From Vicinamibacterales bacterium (GTDB lineage: Bacteria; Acidobacteriota; Vicinamibacteria; Vicinamibacterales; 2-12-FULL-66-21): DNA of 64,000 nt. The stretch spans positions 129,841 to 193,840 of the forward strand of contig DASSPH010000099.1 of NCBI GenBank assembly GCA_035699745.1. The letters run 5' to 3'. Made by a program: the position numbers and the translations under genes. The notes under the pieces are model-generated. The model did not search any database and had not been told where the DNA came from. It saw only the letters and a list, made by a program, of their open reading frames with translations. This document shows positions 6,318 to 46,430 of the stretch, one piece after another (the first letter of the stretch is position 1; the number at the start of each line of letters is the position of its first letter).

Positions 6318-6320
6318 TGC

Positions 6321-9445: not shown

Positions 9446-9473
9446 GCGGCGACGCACGCATTGCGCGTCGCCC
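9446..9473 (-). terminator. GC-rich imperfect palindrome downstream of the small lipoprotein ORF (putative terminator hairpin)
   Basis: GGCGACGCACGC-ATT-GCGCGTCGCC, about 35 nt 3' of the 9511 stop on the minus strand, followed on that strand by CCTTCCTTCTGGTT. No clean U-tract. Confidence 0.3.
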
Positions 9474-9510
9474 GGAGTCGACGATGCGGCGGGTGATCCC
9501 GCGGACCGCG

Positions 9511-9669: not shown

Positions 9670-9744
9670 TGCAGCACCATCCCCGCTCCGGTTCTTTCAC
9701 GACTCGTGCCGTGGCGGGCGCGCCGTTTGCGTCCGGACACACCG

Positions 9745-10509: not shown

Positions 10510-10612
10510 TAAGGTTCGCCGATGGTACGAATGGTCGGCATCGCGGCAGCCGTCGTCCTCGTCGCGCAATCTGGAGCCGCGTCCTCTACGACCGTGCCGC
10601 GATGGTGACGCG

Positions 10613-12187: not shown

Positions 12188-12235
12188 CCTACTCCCCTAG
12201 ACGTCCGACAAGGAACGCGCTAAGCTCGAGCCGCG

Positions 12236-12427
12236 GTGCCGGATGCGAACGCGGCGAAGGCGCTGCTCGCGAACGATCCGTTCGTCAAGGCCGGCGTGAT
12301 GGTCCCGGACCGTGTCAAGGACGTCGCCGCCGCGACCGCGCTGGCGGCGGAAGATCCGTCGGTGAAGGCGGGACGGTTGAAGCTGGAAGCTTGTCCGTGG
12401 ATGACCTTCAAGGGCATTCTCAAGTAG
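12236..12427 (+). pseudogene. YciI-like protein, C-terminal remnant (N-terminal half missing)
   Basis: 63-aa GTG-started ORF ending ...AEDPSVKAGRLKLEACPWMTFKG. This matches the conserved C-terminus of the YciI/Dabb family (DPF..G....E..PW). An in-frame stop at 12221-12223 leaves no room for the roughly 50 N-terminal residues. An intact paralog lies at 35409..35783. Confidence 0.3.
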
Positions 12428-12890
12428 GCCGCGGCGCGAGCACGAACTCGAACTTCGGCAGCGTCCGATCCCTGGCGCCCGGCATCGGCGCCGGCACTTC
12501 GCCAATCCGCCGTGCGCCGAGCCGCTCGTAGAAGCCGCTGGCGAACGGGTCGGACAGCAGTTCGACGGCGCTGACGCTGCGGCGCCTCGCCTCCGTCAAC
12601 GCGTGCAGCACCAGCGCGCGGCCGACGCCGCGGCCGTGCCTCGCCGGCTCCACCCAGACGTGCTCCAGGTTGCAGCGGTCGCCGCGGTCCTCGAGCGCGC
12701 ACATCCCGACCACCGCGCCATCCTCTTCCGCGACCCATACGTCGTGCAGATCGAGATACCCGGGAATGATGGTGAGCTGGGCGTCCCATTCGCGCATCCA
12801 GTGTGCCGGATAGCCCCAGTGCGCCTTGGCCCGGTGCGCCAGGTCCGACAACGCGTCGGCATCGTCCGCCGCGGCGCGCCGAATGAGCAT
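12420..12890 (-). CDS. GNAT family N-acetyltransferase
   Basis: 156 aa. Acetyl-CoA binding motif VWVEPARHGRGVGRALVLHA. Confidence 0.85.
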   Translation of the reverse strand: MLIRRAAADDADALSDLAHRAKAHWGYPAHWMREWDAQLTIIPGYLDLHDVWVAEEDGAVVGMCALEDRGDRCNLEHVWVEPARHGRGVGRALVLHALTEARRRSVSAVELLSDPFASGFYERLGARRIGEVPAPMPGARDRTLPKFEFVLAPRPT

Positions 12891-13437
12891 GCACCAGTTG
12901 TATCATGCGGGCCTGCCTCTCCTCCTCCTGGGCGTCTTCATCGTCCTCGCCTTTATCGCGCTGATTCCGTTCTCCCTGATCCAGCGGTTCCGGATGGGGA
13001 CGATGCGCCGGCGCGCGCTCGGCTGGGTGATTGGCCTGAACGCGTTCGGGACCTTGCTGTCGGTGCTGTTCTTCCTGGTCAGCGCAGCGATCGCGACCCG
13101 CTGGGTTCCCGGCACGCTGACCTACACCGCCGCCGGCATCGGCGGCGGCGCGGCCGCGGGTGCGCTGGGGCTGGCGCTGACGCGCTGGGAGGCGGCCGCG
13201 GGACGGCTGTACTACACGCCCAACCGGTGGCTGGTGCTCGCGATCACGCTCGTGGTGACCGGACGTTTGTTCTACGGCTTCTATCGCAGCTACGAGGCGT
13301 GGCAGGCGACGCTGGATCGCATGACGTGGGTGGCGGTCTCGGGCGTGGCGACGTCGATGTCCGCCGGCGCCATCGTGCTCGGGTACTACCTGGTCTACTG
13401 GTTTGGCGTGCGGCGGCGCCTGCGGCGCGTTTCGTGA
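12883..13437 (+). CDS. Integral membrane protein (4-5 TM), unknown function
   Basis: Hydrophobic helices LPLLLLGVFIVLAFIALIPF, ALGWVIGLNAFGTLLSVLFFLVSAAIA, WLVLAITLVVTGRLFYGFY, VAVSGVATSMSAGAIVLGYYLVYWF. Start chosen at the first ATG (12883) after the Arg/Ser-rich track extension. Confidence 0.5.
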   Translation: MSMHQLYHAGLPLLLLGVFIVLAFIALIPFSLIQRFRMGTMRRRALGWVIGLNAFGTLLSVLFFLVSAAIATRWVPGTLTYTAAGIGGGAAAGALGLALTRWEAAAGRLYYTPNRWLVLAITLVVTGRLFYGFYRSYEAWQATLDRMTWVAVSGVATSMSAGAIVLGYYLVYWFGVRRRLRRVS

Positions 13438-13452
13438 TATAGCCTCAGGTCG

Positions 13453-14604
13453 ATGAGCTACACTCCCGACCCGTCTCACAAGTTCACGTTCGGCCTCTGG
13501 ACCGTCGGCAACCGCGGACGCGACCCGTTCGGCGAAGCGGTCCGTCCCGCGCTCGATCCCGTCACTTCCGTGCACAAGCTGGCGGAACTCGGCGCCTACG
13601 GGATCAACCTGCACGACAACGACCTCGTTCCAATCGACGCGACACCCGCGGAGCGGGACGCCATCGTCCGGCGGTTCCGCCAGGCGCTCGAGGCGACAGG
13701 ACTGAAGGTGCCGATGGCGACGACCAACCTGTTCACCGATCCGGTGTTCAAGGACGGCGCGTTCACGTCGCACGATGCTTCGGTCCGCGCCTATGCGGTT
13801 CAGAAGACGATGAGCGCGATGGACCTGGGCGTGGAGCTCGGGGCGCGGACGTACGTGTTCTGGGGCGGACGCGAGGGGGCGGAGGTCGACGCGGGCAAGG
13901 ATCCCATCCAGGCCATCGCCCGCTTCCGTGAAGCGATCGACTTCCTCTGCGAGTACGCGATCGATCGGAAGTATCCGCTGCGGTTCGCTCTCGAAGCGAA
14001 GCCGAACGAGCCGCGCGGCGACATCTACTTCCCCACCACGGCGGCGTATCTCGGCTTCATCCCGACGCTGGCGCATCCCGACATGGTCGGCGTGAACCCC
14101 GAGGTCGCGCACGAGCACATGGCGGGGCTGAACTTCTATCACGCCGTCGCCCAGGCGCTCGAGGCCGGCAAGCTCTTTCACATCGATCTGAACGATCAGA
14201 AGCCCGGCCGGTTCGACCAGGATCTGCGCTTCGCCTCCGAATCGATCAAGCCGCTGTTCTTCCTGGTGAAGCTCCTGGAAGAATCCGGCTACGACGGGCC
14301 GCGCCATTTCGACGCGCACGCCTACCGGACGGAGGACGAACAGGGCGTGTGGGACTTCGCGCGCGGCTGCATGCGCACGTATCTCATCCTGAAGGAGAAG
14401 GCGGAGCAGTTCCGCGCGCACGCGGAGATTCAGGCGCTGCTCGCGGAGCTCGAACCACAGGGGCAGGAGCCGCTCGGTCCGTACTCGGCGGATCGGGCCG
14501 CGGGCTTGAAGGTGCGGGTATTCGATCGTGAGGCGCTGGCGGCGCGCCGGCTGCCCTACGAGCGCCTCGACCAGCTCGTGGTCGAGCTGCTGCTGGGCGT
14601 CTGA
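13453..14604 (+). CDS. xylA: Xylose isomerase, class I (short, actinobacterial type)
   Basis: 383 aa. N-terminal FTFGLWTVG signature; metal/active-site region [26 protein letters not shown]. Confidence 0.92.
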
Positions 14605-14639
14605 GCCGGCGGAGCCCGGCCCGGCATAGAATCCAGCGC

Positions 14640-15986
14640 ATGTCGACGCACCTTCGCTTCGCGGCGGCCATGGCCGGCCTTGCGTTCCTCACTGGCGCGG
14701 GCGCACTCGCGCAGTCCCGCGCCGGCGACTGGCCAAGCTGGCGCGGCCCCGACGGCGGCGTCTCTCCGGCCGCGTCGCTGCCGACGCGCTGGAGCGCGAC
14801 CGAGAACGTCGCGTGGAAGGCGGCACTCGCCGGTGCGGGCGTGTCGACGCCGATCGTCAGCGGCGACCGCGTCTACGTCACCTCGCAGATCGGCGCCGGC
14901 GTCCGCCGCGAAGGCAACCACCCGCGCCTCGTGCAAGGCGCGGATGCCGCCGCCCAGGGCGAGCGCCCGCTCGGCGCGGCGAGCGCGCCCGACCCCGGCA
15001 GGACGACGTTCGTCGTCGAGGCGTTCAATCGCGCGGACGGCACGCGCGTGTGGGAGCGCCGCATCGACGCCGAGGGGGATCTGACCCCCGTTCACGACAA
15101 GCACAACCTGGCGACGGCGAGCCCGGCCAGCGATGGCTCGATGGTCGTGGCGTGGTTCGGCACCGGGCAGGTGGTCGCGCTCGATCGCGCGGGCGGCGTG
15201 CTGTGGCAGCGGAACCTCGCGCGCGAGAACGGGGCGTTCGACATTCAGTGGGGACACGGCAGCTCGCCGGTGCTGCACGGGGACACGGTGCTGCTGCTCT
15301 GCGACCAGCCCTCGCGGTCGTATCTGCTGGCGATCGACAAGGCGACGGGCAAGGATCGGTGGAAAGCGGATCGCGGCACGGGACGCGCGTCGTACAGCAC
15401 GCCGCTCGTGGTGCAGGGGCCGTTCGGCACCGAGATCGTCGTCAACTCCACCGAACGGATCGACGCCTACGACGCCGCCAGCGGCACGCTGCTGTGGCAC
15501 GCCGGCGAAGCGAGCCGGTTCGCCGTGCCGACGCCCGTGTTCCATGGCGGCGTGATCTATGCCAGCCGCGGCTACCGCAGCGGCCCATACATGGCGCTGA
15601 AGCCGGGCGGGCGCGGCGACGTGAACGGCACGCACACACTCTGGCGCGTCGCCACCGGCGCGCCGTACGTCTCCTCGCTGCTCTTCTACGAGGGGCTCGT
15701 CTATATGGCCAACGACGTGGGCGTGCTCACCGCCGTCGACGCGGCGAGCGGCCAGCGGGTCTGGCAGGAGCGGGTGGACGGCGTGTTTTCGGCCTCCCCG
15801 GTGGGCGGCGGCGGGCACGTCTATTTCGTCAGCGAGAACGGCGAGACCGTCGTCGTCAAGGCGGGACGCACGCCGCAGATCGCCGCGCGCAACCCGCTCG
15901 GCGAGCGCGCCATTGCGTCGCCGGCGATCGCCGGCGGTCAGATCTTCCTCCGCACCGACCGGCACGTGTTCGCGATCGGCCGCTAG
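14640..15986 (+). CDS. PQQ-like beta-propeller repeat protein, secreted
   Basis: 448 aa. Signal peptide; repeated W-containing blade motifs (DWPSWRGP, VAWKAAL, VWERRID, LWQRNL, LLWHAG, VWQERVDG). Confidence 0.8.
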   Translation: MSTHLRFAAAMAGLAFLTGAGALAQSRAGDWPSWRGPDGGVSPAASLPTRWSATENVAWKAALAGAGVSTPIVSGDRVYVTSQIGAGVRREGNHPRLVQGADAAAQGERPLGAASAPDPGRTTFVVEAFNRADGTRVWERRIDAEGDLTPVHDKHNLATASPASDGSMVVAWFGTGQVVALDRAGGVLWQRNLARENGAFDIQWGHGSSPVLHGDTVLLLCDQPSRSYLLAIDKATGKDRWKADRGTGRASYSTPLVVQGPFGTEIVVNSTERIDAYDAASGTLLWHAGEASRFAVPTPVFHGGVIYASRGYRSGPYMALKPGGRGDVNGTHTLWRVATGAPYVSSLLFYEGLVYMANDVGVLTAVDAASGQRVWQERVDGVFSASPVGGGGHVYFVSENGETVVVKAGRTPQIAARNPLGERAIASPAIAGGQIFLRTDRHVFAIGR

Positions 15987-15987
15987 C

Positions 15988-17052
<1,065 letters not shown>

Positions 17053-17069
17053 CGGGTTACCATGAGGGC

Positions 17070-17477
17070 ATGCCCCTCGACGAGCGCTCGCTGTTCACCG
17101 ACAAGCACGAGACCAGGCCGGGACGTTTCCAGTGCCCGAAGTGCCGCCGCACCGGCGAATACAGCATCCGGTGGGTGCGCCGCACGAAGAAGGACCGGCT
17201 GCCGCCCGGGGCCGACGAGGTGGATCGCGCCAAGTTCGCCAAGCTGCGCAACTATCTGCTCAGACTGGACGACGAAGTCACCTGCAAGACCTGCGGCAGG
17301 AAGTTCGAGATTCCGTCGCAGCAGTCGATGATCTTCGTCGACCAGCTCGCCGGGCTGCCCAACGAGGAGGATCTCGAGCGCGAGATCGCCGCCGCGTCCG
17401 GCGAATCCGAGCCCGAGCCGCCGAAGAAGCCGAAACTGCCGGACCGGTTCACCCGCACCCCCAGCGGCTGGAAGTAA
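17070..17477 (+). CDS. Zinc-ribbon protein (two CxxC pairs)
   Basis: 135 aa. CPKC...(41 aa)...CKTC; acidic C-terminal tail. Preferred over the antisense ORF 17049..17630, which is Arg/Gly-rich. Confidence 0.55.
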   Translation: MPLDERSLFTDKHETRPGRFQCPKCRRTGEYSIRWVRRTKKDRLPPGADEVDRAKFAKLRNYLLRLDDEVTCKTCGRKFEIPSQQSMIFVDQLAGLPNEEDLEREIAAASGESEPEPPKKPKLPDRFTRTPSGWK

Positions 17478-18031
17478 GACAGCAGCGCCGTCCTGGGAAG
17501 GAATTTGCCGAGACACGGAACCTTTCTCTCCCCGGGGGCAGACCTTTTCACCGGCAATCGCGGGTTTTCCGGCGCATTTCGCTGGAACCGATGTTGCTCC
17601 GGTGGAAGGCGTGCCTCTTGACGTCGCCATCGGACGCGCGCTCGCATGGTGCGCTCATCCTTACCTTTCGTGGCGGCGTCTGCCGGCATCCGGTCGCGTG
17701 CTGCTGGTGGCTGCGTATGTCAGTGCCGGCTACGTGACCGTGTTGACGCTGCTGCTGGTCTCCTGATCGGTCGCCGCGGCCGCGTCACACCGGTCTGCCG
17801 TCATGACGCCGCCGGCCGGCGGCCGGTGGTCGGTTCCGTCCTTCGGGGTGGGTCCGTGGCGCGGGCGGATGTCCCGCAACTCGGGTCCAGATCTCCCCGG
17901 CCGATCACCGGGCGCCGGCCGCCGTCGATCCCGCCTCCGCGTCAGAGCGATGCCCTCGGACATGTGAACGCCTCCCCCCTGACGATAGCGGGCCGGCGTG
18001 ACAACGGGGAAACGCGTGCGTTTCAGGAAGG

Positions 18032-18589
18032 TCAGGGATTGGCGTCGGTCGTCGCCGTGAGGCGGCGCCGCATGTTCACGTCGCGGTTCTGTTCGATGTA
18101 GTCGACGCCGTCGGCGGTGATCGCCAGCCGCGACTGATCGTCGCGGGTCACCAGCTTCCGCTGCGTCAGGTACCAGATCGTGAACTCGAGGTGCTCGCGA
18201 GGCTGGCCTGTCAGCTGCGACAGCTCGTAGTTGGTGAACGCCGGCGACCCCGGCTCGGCCCGTCGGCGCGCGTAGAGGATCTCGAGAATCGTGCACCGGA
18301 GCTGCTGTTCCAGCTCGAAGTCGCTGGCGCCGCTCGCCGTCGCCGCGAAGCGCCACCGCTCCTGCCGCAGCGCCTGGTGATGGACGTCGTACTGCGCCCG
18401 CTTCTCGGGCACGCTGAGCACCGAGTACGCCTCGTGCAGCGCGCGGAAGCGATCGGCGTCGCCGGTCTCCTTGTTGTCAGGATGGAAGCGCTGCGCGAGC
18501 AGCCGGAACACCCGCTGAACGGTGTCCGGATCGGCGTTGGGGCTGATCTGCAGCGTCTCGTAGTAGTCGACGGGGTGACCCTCTGACAT
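18032..18589 (-). CDS. J-domain (DnaJ-like) protein with C-terminal winged-helix-like region
   Basis: Start MSEGHPVDYYETLQISPNADPDTVQRVFRLLAQRFHPDNKETGDADRFRALHEAYSVLSVPEKRAQYD, a canonical J domain with HPD. The track's upstream 53 codons are junk. Confidence 0.7.
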   Translation of the reverse strand: MSEGHPVDYYETLQISPNADPDTVQRVFRLLAQRFHPDNKETGDADRFRALHEAYSVLSVPEKRAQYDVHHQALRQERWRFAATASGASDFELEQQLRCTILEILYARRRAEPGSPAFTNYELSQLTGQPREHLEFTIWYLTQRKLVTRDDQSRLAITADGVDYIEQNRDVNMRRRLTATTDANP

Positions 18590-18675
18590 GCACGTCCTTT
18601 CCGCTGGCCGCAGATGATCGCCGAAACCCTGCCGCGAGCGCAAGGCGGACGTAGAATCGCGCCGGAGGTCCGCAC

Positions 18676-35783: not shown

Positions 35784-35900
35784 GGTTACTCTCCTTGGGG
35801 CGGCCGCCATGACCGCGTTCTGATGGCTGGTCGAATGCGTGCCGCGCGGATCGACAAAGTCGCACCGCGGAAGCACCTGTCATACACTCCAGCGCACGAC

Positions 35901-36755
35901 ATGAAGCTCATCGTGGAGCCGGAAGGGGGCATCGGCCCGATTCTGAGGGCGATCGCCCAAGCGAAGAGCGCGATCGACATCGTGATCTTCCGCCTGGACT
36001 GCCGCTCGGTGACGCGCCACCTCGAGGACGCGGTGCGCCGCGGGGTGCTGGTCCGGGCGATGATCGCCCGGAAGCACCGCGGGCATTCCCGCGATCTGCG
36101 CAAGCTCGAGCGCCGCCTGCTGCGGTCGGGCGTCATCCTCTCCCGCACCGCCGGCGATCTCGTGCGCTATCACGGCAAGATGATGATCGTGGATCGGCGC
36201 ATCCTGCACGTCTACGGGTTCAATTACACCCGCCGCGACTACGAGAGCCGCAGCTTCGGCATCGAGACCACGGATCCCGCCCTGGTGCGCGAGGCGCTGA
36301 AGCTGTTCGACGCCGACGCGGCGCGGCGGCCCTATCGCCCCGGTCACCGCGATCTGGTGGTCAGTCCGGCGAATTCGCGCGAACGGCTGGCGGCGTTCAT
36401 CCGGGGCGCGCGCCGGCAGCTCCTCATCTACGACCCGCGCTTCAGCGATCGCGACATGCACGACCTGATCGCCGAGCGGTCCGGCGCGGGGGTCGACGTG
36501 CGCGTCATCGGCAAGGTGCGGCACCTGCGATCGCCGCTCGCCATCGAGAAGTTCCCCGGCTTCCGGCTCCACGTCCGGGCGATCATCCGGGACGGGACGC
36601 ACGCGTTCGTGGGCAGCCAGAGTCTCGGCCCGATCGAGCTGGATCGGCGCCGCGAGGTCGGCGTCATCGTCCGGGACGCCGCCATCGTCCGGCGCATGCG
36701 GTCGGTGTTCGAGGGGGACTGGTCGCAGACCGGCGCCGCGAGAGCCGCCGGGTAG
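35901..36755 (+). CDS. Phospholipase D-like (HKD) domain protein
   Basis: Start MKLIVEPEGGIGPILRAIAQAKSAIDIVIFRL. Two HxK motifs: YHGKMMIVDRR and LHVRAIIRDGTHAFVGSQSL. The track's long N-terminal extension (from 34893) is junk. Confidence 0.8.
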   Translation: MKLIVEPEGGIGPILRAIAQAKSAIDIVIFRLDCRSVTRHLEDAVRRGVLVRAMIARKHRGHSRDLRKLERRLLRSGVILSRTAGDLVRYHGKMMIVDRRILHVYGFNYTRRDYESRSFGIETTDPALVREALKLFDADAARRPYRPGHRDLVVSPANSRERLAAFIRGARRQLLIYDPRFSDRDMHDLIAERSGAGVDVRVIGKVRHLRSPLAIEKFPGFRLHVRAIIRDGTHAFVGSQSLGPIELDRRREVGVIVRDAAIVRRMRSVFEGDWSQTGAARAAG

Positions 36756-36767
36756 CGCCCAGCTCCC

Positions 36768-36814
36768 AAAATCGCTCACCCAAAATCCCTCACGCCGGTG
36801 GCCTCCTGTTGACA
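36768..36814 (+). promoter_or_regulatory. Conserved direct-repeat motif plus TTGACA upstream of padR (copy 1)
   Basis: AAAATCGCTCACcCAAAATCCCTCACGCC, then 12 nt, then TTGACA (36809-36814), 32 nt before the ATG at 36846. Near-identical to copy 2 at 43248..43280. Confidence 0.5.
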
Positions 36815-36845
36815 TTCGACCCGAGTAGGAGCAGACTCCTGTCGC

Positions 36846-37196
36846 ATGTCTACCCAAGACGATAAGGAGCGGATCGCCCTTCTGCAGGGAACATTGGATC
36901 TGCTCATTCTTCGGGTATTGATCTTTGGGGGCCAGCACGGCCAGGGCATCGCCCGGGCAATCGAGCAGCAAACGGACGGGACACTACTCGTCGACCACGG
37001 GTCTCTTTATCCCGCCCTGCAGCGCCTTGAGCGCCGCGAGTGGATCGAGGCGGAATGGGGCACGTCGGACAACAACCGGAGGGCTCGCTTCTACCGGCTC
37101 ACGCGCGCCGGACGCAAGCGGCTGACTGCAGGTACGGGCCAGTGGTACCGGCTGAGCGCGGCCATCGCACGAGTCCTCGGACCTGAACAGGCCTAG
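36846..37196 (+). CDS. padR: PadR family transcriptional regulator
   Basis: 116 aa. [14 protein letters not shown]...[40 protein letters not shown] is the PadR wHTH. Confidence 0.9.
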
Positions 37197-37198
37197 TT

Positions 37199-39817
37199 AT
37201 GGCGCGTCGCCACGACCCTTCGGATGACGAGTTTCGGGAAGAAGTCGAGTCGCACGTCGCGCTCGAGACCGACCGCCTGCTGGCCGAGGGCGTCAGCCCA
37301 GAGGAAGCCGCAATGGCGGCCCGGCGAAAGTTCGGGAACGTCACCCGTGTCCGGGAGAACTTCTACGAATCGCGGCGCGTGATGTGGTTCGAGGACCTGC
37401 GACATGACACGCGCTTTGCAGTGCGCTCCTTGCAACGCAGCCCCGCGTTTACAGCCGTGGCCCTTTTGACTCTGGCAATAGGCCTGGGCGCAAATACGGC
37501 GATCTTCAGCGTCGTCAATGCGGTTCTGCTGCGCCCACTTCCGTATAACGCGCCTGACCAGTTGGTCCTGCTGGAGCATCCGCCGCTTGGCGGGAGCCCC
37601 GCCTGGTTAAGAGACGCCTGGCACGCGCGATCGCGCACGCTGACGGAGTTCGCCGGCATCGAGCCGTCCGCGCCAGCGACACTCGTCGCCGGAATTCAGC
37701 CGATGCCTGTCAACGCTGCGCACGCCACGGCGAACTTCTTCGCACTGCTGGGCATCAAGGCTTCGCTCGGAAGGATCTTCGCCGAGACAGATACCCAGCC
37801 TGGGGCGCCGGCGGTCGCGGTGCTCAGCCACAGCTTCTGGATTCGGCAGTTTGATGCCAGTGCCGACACCATCGGCAAGAGCATCACGCTGACGGATGTA
37901 ACCTTGACGGGCGAGCCGCGCGTTATCATCGGCGTGCTCCCAGCCGATTTCCGCTTCCCCGTTGCGGACCCGCCTGGTGAAGCACCGATATTCGCGAGGA
38001 TGCAACCAGATGTCATCGTTCTCTCCCGGGATGACGCGTTTCAGCAGGTGATTGGAAGGCTCGCTCCCGGAACGACAGCGGCGAAGGCCTCAACCGAGTT
38101 GTCCGGCATCTTTGCCCAAGAAGCGTCCGCACGTTTTTCGGCGCGTTTCGTTGAGCGCACGCGTGTCATCGCAATGCCTCTTCAGGATCGCCTCGTCGGC
38201 AATGCCCGGTATCGGCTGCTGCTGCTCATGGGTGCCGTGGGCTGTGTTCTCCTCGTGGTGTGCGCCAACATCGCCAGCCTTCTGTTGGCGCGCATCACCG
38301 GACGCGGACCCGAGTTTGCCGTCCGCGCGGCGCTCGGCGCGCGGACCGGCCGCCTTGTACGCATGATCCTGACAGAGAACGTCCTCCTCGCCATTTTCGG
38401 CGGCGCAGTTGCACTGTTCCTCGCGTACTGGAGCAATGACGTGCTCCGCTCGCTGCTCGCAGGTCGTGTCTCCTACGTCGAAACCGTCGCACTTGACTGG
38501 CGGGTGTTGGCCTTCAATCTCGCCGTCGCCGCGGCTATGGGTGTGGTCTGCGGGCTCGCATCTCTCGCGACGATTTGGTCGACCCGGCACGCAGGGAGCA
38601 CGACCGCAGCTGGTCGATCCATCACCCGACGCCCGCGCCTAGGTTTGACCCTTGTGGCCGGGGAAGTCGCCGTCGTGTTCGTCTTAGTCTTGATGGCGGC
38701 GCTGTTGTCTCAGACGCTCTGGAACCTTCGTCACACCAGGCGAGGTTTTGACGCGAGCGGACTGCTGACCGCCGGGGTGATGCCGGGAGCGTCCGGCACC
38801 ATTCCCGAGTTGCAGAACCTGACCGTGACGTTCTTCGGCACGATCGTCGATCGCATCGCTCGAGAGCCGAATGTGGAATCGGTAGCGGCAGCGTCAACCG
38901 TGCCGTTCAGCGGTCCGGCTATGGGGATGTCCGGCGTGTCGGTCGTGGGCCGCCAGGCACCCGACAAGACCCCGCCAGTCTCTGTCGCGGCCGTCACACC
39001 GGGCTATTTCGCGACGATGCGGATCCGGTTGATAGGTGGCCGTGATTTCAACAGGGGGGATGTTCCGTCGCGAGACCGCGTCGCCATTGTCAACGAGGCT
39101 TTCTTGCGAGTGATCGCGTCGGCCCTGACACCTGGCACAGAGATCCAGTTTGGCCGCTCTCGCCTGACAGTAATCGGCATCGTCGAGAACACACCGGACA
39201 CGTCGCTCCGGCGACCGGCTCGGCCGTTTGTGTATCTCCCAATGGCTCAGACCATCGGCAGCCAATTCGCTTTCGGCCGGTTGATGATCCTAGTGCGCGC
39301 GCGTAGTGGCGACCCGGCCGCGCTGATCCCCACCCTGCGCAACACCGTCTGGAGCCTCGGACACGACATCGTGATAGATGACGTCAGCACGATGGACGAA
39401 CGGGTCGGCGCGGCAGTGCGCACGGAGCGGGACAGCGCGCTGTTGTTTGGAGTGCTAGGCGCCATCGCACTAGTCGTTGCCGTCGCCGGTGTGTACGGTG
39501 TCGTCGCGTACTCGGTTTCGCAGCGCACTCGGGAGATCGGGATTCGAACGGCTATCGGTGCGACTCATCGTCAGGTGGTGGCCGGCATCGTCCGAGAGTC
39601 GGTTTGGCCCGTCGCAATCGGGATAGGAATCGGGGCTGCCACCGCGGTCGTCGTCGTGCGCGCGATCGCGGGACTTCTTTTTGAAATTAGGCCCACGGAT
39701 CCGCCGACCTACGTCGGGACGGCCGTCGCTCTGACTCTTACGGCCTTGGCGGCAGCGTGGATTCCCGCACGGCGGGCTGCTGGGGTCGATCCGGTCACGG
39801 CACTTCGCGCTGAATAG
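37199..39817 (+). CDS. ABC transporter permease, FtsX-like duplicated (MacB-like) family
   Basis: 872 aa. Two FtsX-type 4-TM modules, each with a periplasmic domain; C-terminal IPARRAAGVDPVTALRAE. Starts 2 nt after the padR stop. Confidence 0.9.
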   Translation: MARRHDPSDDEFREEVESHVALETDRLLAEGVSPEEAAMAARRKFGNVTRVRENFYESRRVMWFEDLRHDTRFAVRSLQRSPAFTAVALLTLAIGLGANTAIFSVVNAVLLRPLPYNAPDQLVLLEHPPLGGSPAWLRDAWHARSRTLTEFAGIEPSAPATLVAGIQPMPVNAAHATANFFALLGIKASLGRIFAETDTQPGAPAVAVLSHSFWIRQFDASADTIGKSITLTDVTLTGEPRVIIGVLPADFRFPVADPPGEAPIFARMQPDVIVLSRDDAFQQVIGRLAPGTTAAKASTELSGIFAQEASARFSARFVERTRVIAMPLQDRLVGNARYRLLLLMGAVGCVLLVVCANIASLLLARITGRGPEFAVRAALGARTGRLVRMILTENVLLAIFGGAVALFLAYWSNDVLRSLLAGRVSYVETVALDWRVLAFNLAVAAAMGVVCGLASLATIWSTRHAGSTTAAGRSITRRPRLGLTLVAGEVAVVFVLVLMAALLSQTLWNLRHTRRGFDASGLLTAGVMPGASGTIPELQNLTVTFFGTIVDRIAREPNVESVAAASTVPFSGPAMGMSGVSVVGRQAPDKTPPVSVAAVTPGYFATMRIRLIGGRDFNRGDVPSRDRVAIVNEAFLRVIASALTPGTEIQFGRSRLTVIGIVENTPDTSLRRPARPFVYLPMAQTIGSQFAFGRLMILVRARSGDPAALIPTLRNTVWSLGHDIVIDDVSTMDERVGAAVRTERDSALLFGVLGAIALVVAVAGVYGVVAYSVSQRTREIGIRTAIGATHRQVVAGIVRESVWPVAIGIGIGAATAVVVVRAIAGLLFEIRPTDPPTYVGTAVALTLTALAAAWIPARRAAGVDPVTALRAE

Positions 39818-39859
39818 CCCGCGTGCCGATGGTTCGCCTCGGGACGTGAACCTCGGCCC

Positions 39860-39968
39860 TTGTAGACCCCCTCTGAAGCGACCTCAATTCTGAGTATACG
39901 CGACTGGGGTATATTGTTATTGTATATAATGCGGCGAGATGCGCTATATCAACTATCATAATATACCC
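39860..39968 (+). promoter_or_regulatory. AT-rich segment (about 30% GC) with TATA-like repeats upstream of the AbiEi-like gene; likely promoter/operator and island boundary
   Basis: ...ctcaattctgagtatacgcgactggggTATATTGTTATTGTATATAATGcggcgagatgcgcTATATCAACTATCATAATATAccc. Contains a perfect TATAAT (39924-39929). Contrasts sharply with the 70% GC flanks. Confidence 0.45.
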
Positions 39969-39970
39969 AC

Positions 39971-40789
39971 ATGGCTGCAGACGATCGGAAGGTGGTCGCC
40001 GCGCTCGCGAGAGCCGCAAAAGGCGGTGTGGTCTCTCTACCCGCCGCACTTCACGCAATTGACGGCCCGCCCGCAAAGGCGGCGCTTCGACTTCGCCGGC
40101 TCATCCGCCACGGTTGGATCGAACGGCTGCGGCGGGGCCTTTACTTAGTCAAGCCGCTCAGCGCGGCTCCCGACCAAGCGGCTATCCCAGAGGACCCGTG
40201 GGTGCTGGCTCGCGAGGTCTTCTCCCCCTGTTACATCGGCGGATGGAGCGCAGCCGAACACTGGGAGCTGACCGAACAGATTTTCCGATCGACGTTGGTT
40301 GTGACCGCTGTGCCTGCTCGAAAGACCGAGCTGCGTATTGGGGGCTACGACTTCCGCGTGTTCCGCGTTCACCGAACTCGTCTCGCTGCCGGAGTCGTCA
40401 ACGTCTGGCGAGGGCCCGAACGGGTCCAGGTCTCTGGACTCGAGCGGACAATCGCGGACGGTCTCCGAGATCCGGAGCTTGTCGGCGGAGGTCGCCATCT
40501 GGTGCAGCTTCTCCGCGCATACGGAGAGCATAAGGACCGCAATTTCGTCCGCTTGCTTGATGTCGCCCGACATACTGCTTCCGGCGCGGCTTGGAAGCGG
40601 CTGGGGTTTCTAAGCGAACGCCTCTGGCCCGCAGAAGTCAAGGTCGTCACCGCCGCCGGCCGCCATCTCACGGCAGGCTACGTCCGTCTCGACCCTGGCA
40701 ATAGACACCATGGAAAGCTCTCCAAGCGGTGGCGGCTCTGGATCAACGTGCCGGTTTCTGACCTGACATCCGAGCCGGCCGCTTCATGA
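39971..40789 (+). CDS. AbiEi-like antitoxin / transcriptional regulator (type IV TA)
   Basis: 272 aa. N-terminal wHTH-like region; C-terminal domain typical of AbiEi/COG5340-like proteins. Stop overlaps the start of the following nucleotidyltransferase gene (ATGA). Confidence 0.7.
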   Translation: MAADDRKVVAALARAAKGGVVSLPAALHAIDGPPAKAALRLRRLIRHGWIERLRRGLYLVKPLSAAPDQAAIPEDPWVLAREVFSPCYIGGWSAAEHWELTEQIFRSTLVVTAVPARKTELRIGGYDFRVFRVHRTRLAAGVVNVWRGPERVQVSGLERTIADGLRDPELVGGGRHLVQLLRAYGEHKDRNFVRLLDVARHTASGAAWKRLGFLSERLWPAEVKVVTAAGRHLTAGYVRLDPGNRHHGKLSKRWRLWINVPVSDLTSEPAAS

Positions 40790-42182
40790 TTGCCAAGCAA
40801 GACATCCTCGATCGCGCTGCCGAATGGCACTTGCGCCCGGAAGTGGTCGAAAAGGACTACGTGCTCGGATGGCTGCTCGCAGGCGTTGCCGCCCTGCCGA
40901 CTCTCTCTGGATTTTCAAGGGCGGCACATGCGTCAAGAAGTGTTTCTTCGAGACATATCGTTTCTCGGAGGACCTGGACTTCTCCCTGCGGCCGGATGCG
41001 CCGTATACGCAGGACGAACTCGTGGCGCAGCTTCGAGAACTGACTGCGCACGTCGCAGAGCTGACCGGCCTGGAGTTTCCGGCTGACCTCGTCGATGTGA
41101 AAACGAGGCAGAACAAGCAAGGGCTACCGACGTTCGAGGGTCGCGTCGCCTATCGCGGTCCCCTCGAGTATCCAGGCTCTCCCAAGATTCGCTTCGACAT
41201 CACGCGACACGAGCCGGTCATCGACGATCCGGCCGAGCGGCCGATTCTGCATCCCTACCCTGACGCGTTGCCCGAGGGCGTCGCCGTGCTCACGTATTCG
41301 TTCGAGGAGTTGCTCGCCGAAAAGACTCGCGCTTTGCTCGAGCGATCGCGGCCTCGCGATTTGTACGATGTCGTTCACCTTCTCGAGAATGCGCCTACGG
41401 ATCTCAATCTGGTCGACGTTCGCAGGCTGTTCGCAAAGAAATGCGCGGGCAAAGCCATCGCGCTGCCTTCGTCGATCGAATTGATCGGCATCGTTGCCGG
41501 CGACGCCGAACTGCGATCCGAGTGGGCGAGTATGCTTGCGCACCAATTGCCAGCATTGCCGGACTTGGACGCGATGCTCTCGAGGCTGCCTGCGGTTCTT
41601 GGCTGGTTGGATGCTCCGTCAAAGCCCCTTCCCGAGACGCAGCTGCCTCGAGTGCCCGTTGGCGAGGGCCTTAGCCCAATCGTTGCACCGGGGATTCGGT
41701 ACTGGGGCGCCGGCTCGCCACTCGAGTCGATCCGGTTCGCGGCGACCAACCGTCTCATGCTCGAGTTCGAATACCACGGCAAGCACCGGCAGGTGGAACC
41801 GTATTCGGTCCGACGAGCTGGCACTGGGAACGTCCTTCTGTACGCTTGGGAACTCGCAGACGGTCACATGAAGGCGTACAAGGTCGACGAAATGTCCGCT
41901 GTCAAGGCGATGAGCGCCACGTTCTCACCGCGATACCAGGTCGAGATCTCGGCGTATGGACCAATACAGGCGTCTTCCACGGCAGCGCATCCGAGAATCA
42001 CGACACCGCGGCAACCGCGCCCCCATTCCGCGCGTCGCGGACCAACCTATATATTTCAGTGCTCGTATTGCGGGAAACGGTTTGAACACTCCACCAATGA
42101 CTCAGCCCTCCGGGAGCACAAAACGCAATCGGGCTGGAAATGCTCGGGACGACGAGGGTACTTAGTCGACGCACGATATTGA
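40786..42182 (+). pseudogene. AbiEii/AbiGii-family nucleotidyltransferase toxin with C-terminal WYL-like and zinc-finger extension; apparent frameshift at (CT)4 near 40901-40908
   Basis: Frame 1 from ATG 40786 gives MIAKQDILDRAAEWHLRPEVVEKDYVLGWLLAGVAALPTLS, the conserved AbiEii N-terminus. Conserved FKGGTCVKKCFFETYRFSEDLDFS continues in frame 0 (track ORF 40824..42182). The junction is actCTCTCTCTgg. The C-terminal 150 aa add R-x-V-x-PY...LLYAWELA...KAYKVDEM (WYL-like) and CSYCGKRFEHSTNDSALREH (C2H2-like). Confidence 0.6.
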
Positions 42183-43208
42183 CTAAACGGTGCGGCGCCA
42201 CTCAAGCCATCTGCTGGCCAAGATCTGGTAATTCCGCGGCGGATGATCTCTGGCACTTTCCCCATGAACGATTCCGAACATCACCGAGTCGCTGGCGGTA
42301 AGAAATCGAAGAAGAATTCCGGTCCACGGGGCCAAGGGAGGAACTCGCCCCGAACCTCCGAGCGCTTTCCTTCGTGGCCTTTGACCCTGTCGTAAAACGT
42401 CGAATCCCTTGGGCCAGGTAGAAGTACGAGATGGCGTCCCATGAGAACTGCAACGCCACCGTCCAGAATTCCTGGCTCCCGAATAATTACCAGGGCTCGA
42501 GCGTCCTTTGGGCTGCTGGGAAACGCGAATCCCGAAGAGCGACGGCGCGGACGTTCGGATGTCGATCTTCTGTCGAACGACTTCATAGGCGGGATCGAGG
42601 ACAAATCGGTATCCGAACTTCGCAAACGCGACGATACATGCTGCCCGTAACCAAGACACAGCCGCGTGGGAAGAGTTGTATTGCTCACGAAATTGCAGCT
42701 TGACATTCCAGTCGCGATCTCCACTCTCCACCAAGCGATTCAGCTCGGCGACGAACGCGGCGTGCGCTGTAGGGGAGTTACGATTCTCATCTCCAAACAA
42801 CTGCATACCCGTCGGCCCGGCTTCCAGCGTCATGTTGACTTGGGTTTGGCCGAGCGCCACCCGAACCCGCTGATCCCGCAGAACACCCGGAGGGTCGTCT
42901 TCGTAACGGGCTGCAATACTCGCGTGAGAGTCCAACATCGATCCCGCGGTGTGATTCCACCTGGCGCACGTCAACGCGATCGCGCGACCACCGGCGAACT
43001 CCGGCGGCGCATGTTCGGCAGTCAGTTGATTCGTTCCAACGGCGGGCCGCATGAAAGCCCGAAAAAGGGTCGGCGTGACGCAAAGGGGGCAGATGTAGAC
43101 GGGACCAATGTGCGGCGGCAGGACGTCGCGGACCACCGATGGGCAAGTCTGCGCGAACGCCTCCGCCCCGCGGTCGAACCACGCAAGGCGCGTTTGCAGC
43201 TTGGGCAT
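42183..43208 (-). CDS. HNH-nuclease-like protein (N-terminal His-Me finger motif), low-GC
   Basis: YICPLCVTPTLF...LTAEHAPPEFAGGRAIALTCARWNHTAG fits CxxC...EH..P..GG....C..N. Local GC is about 57%, versus 70% in the flanks. The C-terminal third is low-complexity and may not be genuine. The stop abuts the AbiEii stop (convergent). Confidence 0.45.
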   Translation of the reverse strand: MPKLQTRLAWFDRGAEAFAQTCPSVVRDVLPPHIGPVYICPLCVTPTLFRAFMRPAVGTNQLTAEHAPPEFAGGRAIALTCARWNHTAGSMLDSHASIAARYEDDPPGVLRDQRVRVALGQTQVNMTLEAGPTGMQLFGDENRNSPTAHAAFVAELNRLVESGDRDWNVKLQFREQYNSSHAAVSWLRAACIVAFAKFGYRFVLDPAYEVVRQKIDIRTSAPSLFGIRVSQQPKGRSSPGNYSGARNSGRWRCSSHGTPSRTSTWPKGFDVLRQGQRPRRKALGGSGRVPPLAPWTGILLRFLTASDSVMFGIVHGESARDHPPRNYQILASRWLEWRRTV

Positions 43209-43247
43209 TCCTATTCAGCACTGATCGTACCTCGAAGCGTCCTCTTC

Positions 43248-43280
43248 GCAATCGCTCACCAAAATCCCTCACGCTTGACA
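43248..43280 (+). promoter_or_regulatory. Conserved direct-repeat motif plus TTGACA upstream of padR (copy 2)
   Basis: GCAATCGCTCACCAAAATCCCTCACGC immediately followed by TTGACA (43275-43280), 61 nt before the ATG at 43342. Confidence 0.5.
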
Positions 43281-43341
43281 GCGCCGCGCCGGACGGAGGA
43301 AACTTTCCGCTCCCATAGTTCGTCTATGCAAAGAGCGGCTG

Positions 43342-43686
43342 ATGAAGGAACCGAAGGCGAAGAACAAGAACGAGCTGCTGCCCGGCACGCTCGAGATGCT
43401 GATCCTCAAAACCCTGTCGATCGGGCCGATGCACGGCTACGGCATCGCCCAGCACATCCAGATGCTGTCGGCTGACGTGCTGACGATCGAAGAGGGATCG
43501 CTGTACCCGGCCTTGCAGCGGATGCGCGTCAAGGGGTGGCTGTCGGCCGAGTGGAAAATCTCGGCGAACAACCGCCGGGCGCGGTTCTACACGCTCACCG
43601 CCGCCGGGAAGAAGCAGCTCGGCCTCGAGGAAGCACGGTTTTCCCAGATGTTCGGCGCGATCATGCGGGTGATGAAGACGACGTAG
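43342..43686 (+). CDS. padR: PadR family transcriptional regulator (paralog 2)
   Basis: 114 aa. LLPGTLEMLILKTLSIGPMHGYGIAQHIQ...[22 protein letters not shown]. Confidence 0.9.
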   Translation: MKEPKAKNKNELLPGTLEMLILKTLSIGPMHGYGIAQHIQMLSADVLTIEEGSLYPALQRMRVKGWLSAEWKISANNRRARFYTLTAAGKKQLGLEEARFSQMFGAIMRVMKTT

Positions 43687-43710
43687 TGGCCTGATTCTCC
43701 GGAGGGTAAG

Positions 43711-46407
43711 GTGGGTTCGTTTCTCCGACGTCTGCTGTTCTTCTTCCAGCGCAACCAGTTCGATCGCGATCTGCAGGACGAGCTGCGCTTCCACGAGGAG
43801 ATGAAAGCGGACGCCCTGGCCGACGCCAACGGCATCAGCGCCGACGAGGCGCGGGCGGCGGCGCGCCGGCGGGTCGGCAATCCCCTGCGGCTGCGCGAGC
43901 AGTCCCGCGAGCCGTGGACCTTCGCGACCGTGGAAACGTCCGCGCAGGACGTGCGCCACGCGCTGCGCCTGATGAGGCGGGCGCCGGCCTTCACCGTCAC
44001 CGCGCTCGCGATCCTCGCGCTCGGCATCGGACTCAACACCGCGATCTTCTCCGTCGCCTACGGCGTGCTCTGGCGGCCGCTGCCCTACCCCGACCCCGAT
44101 CGACTGATCATCGTCCAGTCCGCGCAGCAGACCGAGCGGGGCGTCAGGACCTTCTCGACCTGGTCGCCGGTGTCCTACGACGCGCTCCGCCCGCGCGTCA
44201 CCGCGTTCGAACATCTCGCGGCCTATGTCACGCTCGACGCGCAGCTCAGCGGACGCGGCGAGCCGGCGCAGGTCCAGGGGCTCGAAGTCAGCCCGAACTT
44301 CTTCGCGATGCTGGGCGTCACGCCCGCGCGCGGACGCCCTTTCCTCACCGGCGCCGCCTCGTCAGACGACGATCGCACCGCCATCGTCAGCGATCGACTC
44401 TGGCGCACGTCTTTCGGCGCCGATCCGGCGATCGTCGGACAGTCGATCACCGTCGACGGCATCCCGCGTACCGTCATCGGCGTCATGCCGCCGGATTTCG
44501 GCTTCAGGCCGGTGATCCGGATTGGCGCGCTGCCGGAAACCGATATCTTTCTGTTCAATCGCTGGGCCGGCGACACGGGCCGGAGCGCGTTTCTCTTCCT
44601 GCTGGGGCGCATGAAGCCGGGCGTCACGCAGGAACGCGCCGAAGCGGAATTGACGGCGCTGGTGAACGAGCCGTCGATCGCGCCCACCGGCGCCCTGGGA
44701 ATGGAGGGCACACTCGCGGCGAACGTCCGCACGCTGGCTCGCACAGTCCGCCTGCAGGCCTACGGCATGGAGTCGGTGCGGCCGCTGCTCCTGATCCTGC
44801 TCGGCGCGGTGTCGTTCGTGCTCCTGATTGCGTGCGTCAACGTCGCCAACCTGCAGATGGCGCGCCTCACGGCCCGGCGCGGCGAACTCTCCGTCCGGAT
44901 GGCGCTCGGCGCGGGGCGCCGGCGGATCGTGCGTCAGCTACTGACCGAGGCGGTCGTGCTGTCGCTGCTGGGCGCGTCGCTGGGCGTGCTGCTCGCGCGG
45001 ATCGCGATCGACGTCACGCTGCCGCTCGTCCCGCCGTCCGCGCTGCCCGGCGTCGGCGGGATCGTGATCGACGGCGGCGTGCTGGCGTTCTGCCTCGGCC
45101 TGTCGCTCGTCTCGACGCTGCTGATCGGGCTCCTCCCGGCGCTGCGTGTCAGCGGAACAGCGTTCGGTGAAGGGCTCGCGCTGCACGCCGGCGAGACGCG
45201 AACGACGGGGGACCGCCAGGGCGAACGGCTGCGGACGCTGCTGGTCGCCGGGCAGATCGCCATGACGCTCGTGCTGCTGATCGGCGCGGGGCTGCTGATT
45301 CACAGCTTCCTGCGTCTCACGGCGGTGTCGCCGGGCTTCGAATCGCGCGGGCGCGACGGCGTGGTGCAGACCGTCCGGGTGACGCTGCCGCAACACCTGT
45401 ACGGGGAGCCCGGGCGGATCCATGCGTTCGCGCGCGGCGTGCTCGAGCGCGTCCAGAACCTGCCGGGGGTGACGTCGGCGAGCGTGATCAACTCGGCGCC
45501 GTTCGGCAGGATGTTCATCCAGCTCGACTTCAACATCGAGGGACAGCCGAAGCCCAGGCTCTCTGCCGGCACGCCGAAGATCGACGCCGGCTATTTCCGG
45601 ACGATGGGGATTCCGCTGCTGGCGGGACGGGACTTCACTGCCGCGGACACGGCGGGCGCGCCCAACGTGGCGATCGTCAGCGAGCGCATCGTGCGCGAGT
45701 ACTTTCCCGGCGGCCCGGTCGAGGCGCTCGGCCGGCGGATCCGCATCACCGACCGCGGCGAGTGGCTCACGGTGGTGGGCGTGGCGGCGGACATCCGTCA
45801 GATGGGGCTCGATCGCGACGTGCAGCCGATGATCTACGCGCCGTTCCAGCAGGACCGCAGCGGATTCCTCCGGTTCGTGTCGTTCGTCGCACGCACCACG
45901 ACCCCCTCGGCCGTGGTCGACGGCATCCGCGCCGAGATCCGCCGCGCCGCACCCGATCTACCGATTGCCGGCACGGTGACGATGGACGAAGCGGTTGCGG
46001 CGTCGGTGGCGCCGCCGCGGTTCCGGATGCTGCTGCTGGGGCTCTTCGCGGCGACCGCGATGCTGATTGCGACCTGCGGCATCTACGGCCTGATGGCCTA
46101 CGCCGTGACCCAGCGCCGCCGCGAAATCGGCGTGCGCATGGCGCTCGGCGCCCAACGCCGCGACGTGCTGCGCCTCGTGCTCGCACGCGCGCTCCGCATC
46201 GTCCTCGCCGGGGTGATCGTGGGCCTCGCCGGCGCCGCCGGCGTGACGCGGGTGCTGCAGCGGTTCCTGTTCGGGGTGACGCCGACCGATCCGGTCGCGT
46301 TCACGCTCGTCACGCTGCTGCTGGTAGCCGTGGGGCTGATGGCGGCGTGGCTGCCTGCACGGCGCGCGACCCGGATCGATCCGAGCGTCGCACTGCGCGC
46401 GGAATAG
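43711..46407 (+). CDS. ABC transporter permease, FtsX-like duplicated (MacB-like) family (paralog 2)
   Basis: 898 aa, GTG start. N-terminus VGSFLRRLLFFFQRNQFDRDLQDELRFHEEMKAD typical of this family. Two FtsX modules; C-terminus LPARRATRIDPSVALRAE. Confidence 0.9.
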   Translation: MGSFLRRLLFFFQRNQFDRDLQDELRFHEEMKADALADANGISADEARAAARRRVGNPLRLREQSREPWTFATVETSAQDVRHALRLMRRAPAFTVTALAILALGIGLNTAIFSVAYGVLWRPLPYPDPDRLIIVQSAQQTERGVRTFSTWSPVSYDALRPRVTAFEHLAAYVTLDAQLSGRGEPAQVQGLEVSPNFFAMLGVTPARGRPFLTGAASSDDDRTAIVSDRLWRTSFGADPAIVGQSITVDGIPRTVIGVMPPDFGFRPVIRIGALPETDIFLFNRWAGDTGRSAFLFLLGRMKPGVTQERAEAELTALVNEPSIAPTGALGMEGTLAANVRTLARTVRLQAYGMESVRPLLLILLGAVSFVLLIACVNVANLQMARLTARRGELSVRMALGAGRRRIVRQLLTEAVVLSLLGASLGVLLARIAIDVTLPLVPPSALPGVGGIVIDGGVLAFCLGLSLVSTLLIGLLPALRVSGTAFGEGLALHAGETRTTGDRQGERLRTLLVAGQIAMTLVLLIGAGLLIHSFLRLTAVSPGFESRGRDGVVQTVRVTLPQHLYGEPGRIHAFARGVLERVQNLPGVTSASVINSAPFGRMFIQLDFNIEGQPKPRLSAGTPKIDAGYFRTMGIPLLAGRDFTAADTAGAPNVAIVSERIVREYFPGGPVEALGRRIRITDRGEWLTVVGVAADIRQMGLDRDVQPMIYAPFQQDRSGFLRFVSFVARTTTPSAVVDGIRAEIRRAAPDLPIAGTVTMDEAVAASVAPPRFRMLLLGLFAATAMLIATCGIYGLMAYAVTQRRREIGVRMALGAQRRDVLRLVLARALRIVLAGVIVGLAGAAGVTRVLQRFLFGVTPTDPVAFTLVTLLLVAVGLMAAWLPARRATRIDPSVALRAE

Positions 46408-46430
46408 CGCCTCCAGTAGAATGCGGGCCT

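Follow-up and report, generated by a model that had tools for sequence, protein, structure and literature searches.

A 6.5-kb islet in a Vicinamibacterales genome, probably acquired and now in decay, carries a padR-ADOP cassette, an AbiE module and an HNH-family gene

The toxin-antitoxin modules AbiE, of Lactococcus and Streptococcus agalactiae, and MenAT, of M. tuberculosis, are bicistronic, with the antitoxin gene placed before the toxin gene and the stop codon of the one overlapping the start codon of the other (PMC3985639, PMC7450476, PMC10435456). AbiEi represses the operon by way of inverted repeats in the promoter and also neutralizes the toxin (PMC3985639; PMC7319586), toxins of the MenT type add nucleotides to tRNA acceptor stems (PMC7450476; PMC10435456), and the binding of AbiEi sets off an inhibitory auto-phosphorylation of AbiEii (bioRxiv 10.64898/2026.01.19.700257). 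Four motifs, I to IV, have been defined for AbiEii: hG[G/S]-x15-DhD with an arginine in motif II, K..A...R and +DxxD (PMC3985639). Fusions of WYL domains to DUF1814 nucleotidyltransferases were already catalogued by Makarova et al. 2014 (PMC4012209). Here we describe an abiEi-abiEii pair and its surroundings in a 64-kb stretch of a Vicinamibacterales (Acidobacteriota) genome; this stretch, all of which was analyzed, is referred to below as the window. We conclude that positions ~36796 to 43274 are probably a horizontally acquired, non-autonomous and decaying islet made of known parts, with a padR-ADOP cassette, the AbiE module and an HNH-family gene as cargo.

The pair in the window follows the plan of the studied systems. 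An AbiEi of the COG5340 type, with an N-terminal winged-helix domain, lies directly upstream of the toxin gene in one operon, the abiEii start codon overlaps the abiEi stop codon (ATGA) in the intact allele described below, an imperfect inverted repeat that may be an operator lies in the putative promoter region, and the toxin is a DUF1814 protein with motifs I to IV and the MenT/TglT fold. It differs from them in that the toxin, at 466 amino acids (aa), carries a WYL domain and a zinc finger that are absent from the studied AbiEii and MenT proteins, and in that the toxin gene is frameshifted in this genome. The same three-domain toxin is found among the WYL-fused DUF1814 proteins (PADLOC model PDLC02317; PMC4012209), where full-length homologues (40 to 43% identity over 100% of the length) that bear standard RefSeq names are neighbors of AbiEi genes on plasmids of Rhizobium and Thiodictyon. 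The Rhizobium plasmid pair (NZ_CP121664.1, PGAP-annotated) likewise has an overlapping AbiEi gene directly upstream, and it sits among other toxin-antitoxin and insertion sequence (IS) genes, whereas the pair described here is a disrupted copy in a chromosomal islet of an acidobacterium. In DriD, CapW, BrxR and PafBC the WYL domain controls a DNA-binding transcription factor, and here, in contrast, its fusion partner is an enzyme toxin. The family of the third cargo gene shares the pattern CPLC ... EH ... CxxCN ... D.H with HNH_5 (PF14279) and with the HNH domains of Cap5, Cas9 and McrA, and its structural model matches HNH folds, although the copy here is frameshifted and has lost one zinc ligand. 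Taken as a whole, the islet resembles tRNA-targeted islands and non-autonomous, cis-mobilizable elements in its atypical composition, its direct repeats and its accessory cargo of a toxin-antitoxin module, a nuclease gene and an efflux-type permease. A related cassette sits in an island with tRNA-Cys and an integrase (contig L153), but the islet itself is without an integrase or a tRNA target.

A first-pass annotation of the window had placed a 3.5-kb low-GC island at 39818-43341. The computed GC profile bears out the dip, with a GC content of 0.606 for this segment against 0.693-0.695 elsewhere, which makes it the lowest-GC 3.5-kb stretch in the window; local minima of 0.55-0.58 are reached at 42.1-42.85 kb, and the AT-rich spacer at 39860-39968, put at about 30% GC in that annotation, was measured at 42%. 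In a genome of ~69% GC the GC-richest codon position is a sensitive measure, and we examined codon-phase GC in 600-nt windows together with the GC content at third codon positions (GC3) of each gene. The maximum codon-phase GC stayed below 0.80 in 43 consecutive 600-nt windows, with starts from 36601 to 42901, while elsewhere in the 64 kb such runs comprised at most four. The 3.5-kb limits were thus too narrow: the atypical tract extends from ~36.8 to 43.27 kb, a length of 6.5 kb, and includes the first padR-permease pair (padR1-ADOP1, hereafter cassette 1). Because its GC3 is 0.74, as against 0.91-0.92 in the flanking genes, cassette 1 is cargo rather than flank, so that one of two supposed flanking cassettes changes its role along with the corrected boundaries. 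The low overall GC of padR2, in the second cassette, is due only to its amino-acid content, given its GC3 of 0.92. Five genes, padR1, ADOP1, abiEi, abiEii and the HNH-like gene, occupy the whole islet, and all of its parts belong to known kinds (Table 1).

Table 1. Features of the islet and of its flanks, with positions in the window
Feature	Position	Strand	GC3	Description
PLD (putative native left flank)	35835-36755	+	0.91	phospholipase-D-like, two PLDc_2 domains (Pfam, identical gene in L001)
Direct repeat, left copy	36766-36795	.		two tandem 13-14-nt units (CCAAAATCGCTCAC, CCAAAATCCCTCAC), then GC
padR1	36846-37196	+	0.74	PadR-family regulator, acidobacterial subfamily; TIGR03433 141 bits (cut-off 101.8); in the putatively foreign tract
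ADOP1	37199-39817	+	0.74	ADOP-family duplicated MacB/FtsX-type permease; TIGR03434 734 bits (cut-off 622.3); in the putatively foreign tract
Imperfect 27-nt inverted repeat	39907-39968	.		in AT-rich spacer, 2 nt before abiEi start codon
abiEi	39971-40789	+	0.67	predicted antitoxin/autorepressor; intact 272-aa open reading frame
abiEii	40786-42182	+	0.70	DUF1814 nucleotidyltransferase + WYL domain + C-terminal CxxC..H..C zinc finger; disrupted
HNH_5-like pseudogene	42183-43208	-	0.69	convergent 341-aa open reading frame; ancestral frame 308 aa (43208 to ~42281)
Direct repeat, right copy	43241-43274	.		abuts -35 box of padR2 promoter
Cassette 2 (putative native right flank)	43275-46408	+		promoter, palindrome, padR2, ADOP2
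padR2 promoter	43275			TTGACA
padR2	43342-43686	+	0.92	TIGR03433 143 bits (cut-off 101.8)
ADOP2	43711-46407	+	0.91	TIGR03434 848 bits (cut-off 622.3)

The borders of this tract are marked by a direct repeat. The sequence AATCGCTCAC(C)CAAAATCCCTCACGC, which occupies 36770-36795 in the left copy, is found again at 43241-43274 with 25 of 26 positions matching and one indel. Both copies consist of two tandem 13-14-nt units, are non-coding and coincide with the edges of the low-GC3 tract. The exact 16-mer of the repeat occurs in the window only at the left border and at 43259-43274, a count that no shuffle attained. The 26-nt sequence was not found in any of ~70 related cassette loci (relatives of cassette 1 and of cassette 2), which rules it out as a regulatory feature common to such cassettes, and it lies at unequal distances from the -35 boxes of the two padR promoters. 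We considered whether the repeat might be a PadR operator or another general feature of the cassettes and rejected this, given its absence from the related loci and the presence of a different palindrome that fits the operator. We likewise set aside a phage attachment site; the 16-mer has eight matches in viral contigs, which by our own estimate is the chance level for a sequence this short in a collection of that size. An integrase-type island would join atypical composition and flanking direct repeats, both of which the islet has, to an integrase or recombinase and a tRNA gene or other defined attachment target, which it lacks. Three independent Logan contigs with 100% identity to the window (L001-L003) all terminate at 43294-43503, within 210 nt of the right border of the islet, and the contig with the sole close relative of the PLD gene (L006, 83%) breaks off where PLD ends, close to the left border. 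Strain heterogeneity at these borders may be the cause, or just low coverage; as the ends of L001-L003 do not coincide and their left ends vary, the evidence for heterogeneity is weak.

The AbiEi-like regulator reported by the first-pass annotation is confirmed by a full-length match to the PADLOC AbiEi model PDLC02271 (4.8e-67). In Pfam the protein reaches 29.1 bits against AbiEi_4 (cut-off 25) and 21.6 bits against AbiEi_1, slightly under the cut-off of 22.2, and its sequence is identical in L001-L003. The arms of the inverted repeat before the gene, at 39907-39933 and 39942-39968, are 74% complementary and 8 nt apart. Judged by the layout of the S. agalactiae abiE promoter (PMC3985639), this is a candidate AbiEi operator in the abiE promoter region. 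As DNA the AT-rich spacer that holds the repeat folds no better than shuffles, and the same was true of 42175-42290. Terminator and promoter scans gave no excess over shuffles, and Rfam searches of 35-47 kb, at E values up to 0.1, returned no match.

The nucleotidyltransferase assignment of AbiEii also stood, with 132.4 bits against Pfam PF08843 (cut-off 22.5) and 1.4e-120 against PDLC02317, of whose 396 model positions 1-394 are covered; this model spans the nucleotidyltransferase and WYL parts. The sequence and its alignment contain all of motifs I to IV (GG-x15-DLD with the motif-II arginine, K-x2-A-x3-R and RDLYD), which read in the window as FKGG-x15-DLD after YRFSE, EKTRALLER and RPRDLYD, and the protein has the MenT/AbiEii fold. 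Its C-terminal part combines the Sm-like/SH3 beta-barrel fold of WYL domains with a WYL sequence profile, and it is followed by a confident tail of ~45 residues with a conserved CxxC...HK...C pattern. These C-terminal domains had been called novel. They are the catalogued WYL domain and a zinc finger: an exhaustive search yielded 2814 AbiEii relatives, and in at least 14 of the clusters formed at 50% identity the alignment reaches the end of the zinc-finger tail, so that, as far as sequence comparison goes, the nucleotidyltransferase-WYL-zinc-finger architecture is already known. No AbiEii of this architecture was found in the phage records searched.

The first-pass annotation had missed that both AbiEii and the HNH-like gene are disrupted in this genome. 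Relative to L002 and L003, the window and L001 have a 4-bp deletion (TGTC) between 40900 and 40901, because of which the native abiEii frame from 40786 stops at 41043 after 85 aa. L002 and L003, which come from other samples, hold an intact abiEii of 466 aa and are otherwise 100% identical to the window (blastn). Sibling populations, in other words, still carry the intact toxin allele. A long open reading frame (ORF) of 452 aa does run from an ATG at 40824 to 42182, but its first 26-27 residues are out of frame, all AbiEii homologues align with it only from residue ~27 onward, and it is missing ~40 N-terminal residues that are strongly conserved in the family, all four motifs lying downstream of this lost part. 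This genome thus has the cognate antitoxin of an AbiE module and no intact toxin frame.

The HNH-like ORF of the window gave no Pfam, NCBIfam or PADLOC match itself. It has 27 homologues. The family motif reads CPLC ... EHAPP ... GG ... LTCxxCN ... AG ... LD.H, with C108 nearly invariant, and HNH_5 (PF14279) was matched by 18 of 20 aligned family members (best E value 4.9e-08). The family has what defines an HNH_5 nuclease, the profile and a beta-beta-alpha-metal fold with four zinc cysteines, and the window copy does not. Where the family has CxxCN the window copy reads CARWN, with TGG (Trp) at 42957-42959 in place of the second cysteine of the zinc motif, and one extra base within 42515-42523 produces a +1 frameshift. 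Dropping any one of the bases in this stretch gives back an ORF of 308 aa that ends at ~42281 and aligns with the homologues to its end. The HNH-nuclease assignment of the first-pass annotation accordingly holds for the family, while the copy in the window is a pseudogene. Both lesions are present in four of four assemblies (the window and L001-L003) from at least three samples, and since they are shared in this way they are older than the toxin deletion. We also asked whether the HNH protein might be a third AbiE component and rejected the idea, as three HNH homologue contexts are without AbiE and the Rhizobium plasmid AbiE locus is without HNH. In one of these three contexts the homologue has a serine recombinase and an integrase as neighbors, and another is near a ThiF/JAB/YukD cluster. 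In this last case (L005) the homologue is intact (1107-2054, 51% identity) and the YukD, Prok-JAB and BilD_N-ThiF genes (8602-11278) lie ~6.5 kb from it; the similarity of this cluster to ubiquitin-like (Bil-type) defence systems points to defence islands as a setting for the HNH family. The family is rare in viral contigs.

Given that the toxin has lost its N-terminus and the HNH gene is frameshifted and lacks a zinc-ligand cysteine, the islet has, on this sequence evidence, probably ceased to be active in defence or addiction in this genome. The proposal of a horizontally acquired defence or addiction islet keeps its support in the foreign composition and in the AbiE and HNH-family genes, and has to be revised as to its boundaries, the role of the cassette, the novelty of the AbiEii domains and the functional state of the cargo. 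The nuclease gene would have decayed first, and the toxin would have been knocked out very recently in the lineage with the antitoxin retained. Loss of the toxin before the antitoxin is the order expected when toxin-antitoxin systems are lost. The locus would thus offer a toxin-antitoxin module caught in the middle of its decay, with the toxin gone, the antitoxin kept and the intact allele still circulating in siblings.

Both padR-ADOP cassettes exceed the curated cut-offs of TIGR03433 (PadR) and TIGR03434 (ADOP), with adjacent and co-oriented genes. They had been described as two near-identical padR-FtsX pairs and are instead distant paralogues, with 46% amino-acid identity between the PadR proteins, 33% between the permeases and no long DNA identity. 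The closest relatives of cassette 1 show 73-76% amino-acid identity, and homology to them runs from promoter to stop codon (36799-39821 in L153, 36808-39817 in L165), so that its starts fall directly after the left repeat. In L153 the genes for tRNA-Gly and tRNA-Cys come before the relative, as does a divergent tyrosine integrase, and after it come a transposase fragment (rve) and a small toxin-antitoxin-like pair, one product of which matches dnstrm_HI1420 (HigBA-like); the GC3 of the cassette there is 0.74, as against 0.85-0.88 in housekeeping genes. Downstream of another relative (P0029, 76%) lie genes for AlpA, a VirB11-type ATPase and a TraG-type coupling protein. Judging by these gene neighborhoods, the cassette-1 lineage travels on integrative and conjugative elements. 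JGI sample 3300047160 is the source, on different contigs, of both P0029 and P0001, the closest intact HNH homologue (82%), and this would fit the presence there of a related element of the donor type.

We propose that one crossover, at the repeat sequence upstream of the padR2 promoter, brought in all 6.5 kb and so placed the islet in the chromosome between a native PLD-like gene and the native padR2-ADOP2 cassette. The repeat would then be a crossover site that was duplicated in a Campbell-type integration, and the recombinase would either have acted in trans or have disappeared since. As no tRNA gene, recombinase homologue or empty-site relative was found, the insertion itself and the part played by the repeat are inferred. 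The cargo would have comprised a regulator and permease cassette of the efflux type, the abiEi-abiEii module and a stand-alone HNH_5-like nuclease gene. By analogy with its family, AbiEi of the intact pair would bind the inverted repeat in the AT-rich promoter, repress the operon and also neutralize AbiEii. AbiEii, as a MenT-like nucleotidyltransferase, would add nucleotides to tRNA acceptor ends and halt translation, and the expected outcome would be post-segregational stabilization of the element, abortive infection or both. The WYL domain and the zinc finger of AbiEii probably couple its activity to a nucleic-acid ligand, a suggestion that draws on ligand sensing by DriD, CapW and PafBC.

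Several observations weigh against this account. There is no tRNA gene in the window and no integrase or transposase gene in the islet, and searches with three recombinases and a transposase returned no homologue anywhere in the window. No empty-site genome was found among the relatives of PLD and ADOP2. The surroundings of the cassette-1 relative in L165 show no obvious mobile-element genes. GC3 is slightly lower in the abiE and HNH genes (0.67-0.70) than in cassette 1 (0.74), and because of this difference the islet may be a two-step assembly, in which a mobile element brought cassette 1 and abiE-HNH inserted downstream of it, before or after its arrival here. The accessory genes that follow cassette-1 relatives indeed vary (in one case a transposase fragment and a HigBA-like pair, in another AlpA and conjugation genes, in a third no such genes), and homology to the relatives stops exactly at the ADOP1 stop codon. 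The GC3 difference is small, however, and a single pair of direct repeats brackets the entire 6.5 kb, no internal junction repeat having been found, so that we regard assembly in two steps as possible though on the whole unlikely. As for decay, the 452-aa ORF keeps all the catalytic motifs and might keep some activity, and the 4-bp deletion, seen in the window and in one Logan contig that may derive from the same reads, could be an assembly artefact. If all the frameshifts were assembly or sequencing errors, the AbiE and HNH genes would be functional, and it is true that the source is a metagenome-assembled genome and that an intact, otherwise identical abiEii allele exists in two other samples. 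Yet the deletion lies outside any homopolymer and is in two assemblies, and the HNH frameshift and Cys-to-Trp change recur across all the assemblies and samples listed above, which leaves error a poor explanation that we think very unlikely to be right.

The remaining alternatives concern what is foreign in the tract. The first-pass annotation had the AbiE and HNH genes inserted, as a 3.5-kb islet (39818-43341), between cassettes that were already duplicated, possibly through recombination between them. These genes do have the lowest GC3 and the lowest GC, and a padR-ADOP pair does stand on either side. At the identities between the two cassettes given above, with no long stretch of shared DNA, homologous recombination is implausible; cassette 1 is itself atypical in GC3 (0.74 versus 0.91) and lies inside the direct repeats, and position 39818 shows no repeat or discontinuity besides the end of a gene. 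We therefore give this scenario little credence. It could also be that the whole region is native, its low GC reflecting gene-specific composition or weak selection and the 26-nt sequence being a regulatory element shared by padR promoters. In favor of this, padR-ADOP genes form a large paralogous family native to Acidobacteria (TIGR03433, TIGR03434), and short tandem repeats also precede the -35 box in many cassette-2 relatives. But GC3 is lower by ~0.2 over five consecutive, functionally unrelated genes and only there, the 26-nt sequence is missing from every related cassette locus and differs in its spacing to the -35 boxes of the two promoters, the candidate operator that is conserved in cassette 2 is another palindrome, and AbiE modules and the HNH family are sporadic, occurring on plasmids and in variable regions. 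A native origin seems to us the least likely of these explanations, and a single foreign islet in decay is the reading we retain.

Two more far-reaching ideas may be considered, that AbiEii-WYL-zinc-finger proteins are self-sensing toxins and that padR-ADOP units in Acidobacteria are relocating cassettes with the 26-nt repeat as a junction. In the former, the WYL domain could bind single-stranded DNA or an RNA fragment that arises in phage infection or DNA damage and so free or activate the tRNA-modifying nucleotidyltransferase, and AbiEi could act mainly as a repressor. In the latter, padR-ADOP units could move, from promoter to stop codon, among many genomic contexts by an unrecognized route of recombination. 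We regard these ideas as unlikely. For experiments on such toxins a culturable representative of the subfamily with WYL domain and zinc finger, which is widespread, would make a better model than the broken copy described here.

Searches for related neighborhoods found no genome close enough to have retained that of the islet. In GTDB genomes the PLD flank had a single close match, the relative (83%) whose contig ends at PLD; other PLD relatives (49-62% identity) had no conserved neighborhood in common with the window, and a synteny search based on ADOP2 in metagenomes gave ~60 relatives and no identifiable empty site. Exact-protein look-ups of padR2 and ADOP2 gave no match, and those of PLD and of P0028 (100% identical to ADOP1) returned L001 only.

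The relatives of cassette 2 comprise ~60 metagenome loci with 72-87% nucleotide identity. In every locus reaching far enough, homology to the window starts at 43275-43297 and stops at 46408; the first of these positions is the TTGACA box directly after the right repeat, and the last is one base beyond the ADOP2 stop codon. None of the ~60 loci has a flanking gene in common with the window. When 400-nt flanks were clustered as DNA, 14 loci fell into 12 upstream groups and 30 loci into 25 downstream groups, counts that are overestimates because some loci have ~60 nt of an upstream gene in common. Cassette 2 thus behaves as a discrete unit that occurs in many contexts (L086-L138), and such context-hopping modularity may be part of the reason why the padR-ADOP family has expanded so greatly in Acidobacteria. 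Between the promoter and the padR2 start codon lies the palindrome CATAGTTCGTCTATG (43314-43328), which is kept at the same position in ~18 loci and is likely, from this conservation, to be the PadR autoregulatory operator of cassette 2. In eight relatives (L086, L087, L090, L091, L093, L097, L098 and L122) the ~35 nt before TTGACA contain short tandem repeats of ACGCCAA(A/C), and the window has its own tandem 13-14-nt units at this place upstream of the -35 box. In L117 (~401-450) a deletion joins the 3' part of the upstream gene to the region just past the -35 box and spacer, with loss of the promoter box. L153, the contig with the cassette-1 relative, holds in its segments 6229-11646 and 11813-18622 the textbook island described above and, further on, the gene for an ADOP permease of 1258 aa with fused GAF and SpoIIE phosphatase domains, together with a cassette-2 relative in the opposite orientation (82% nucleotide identity).

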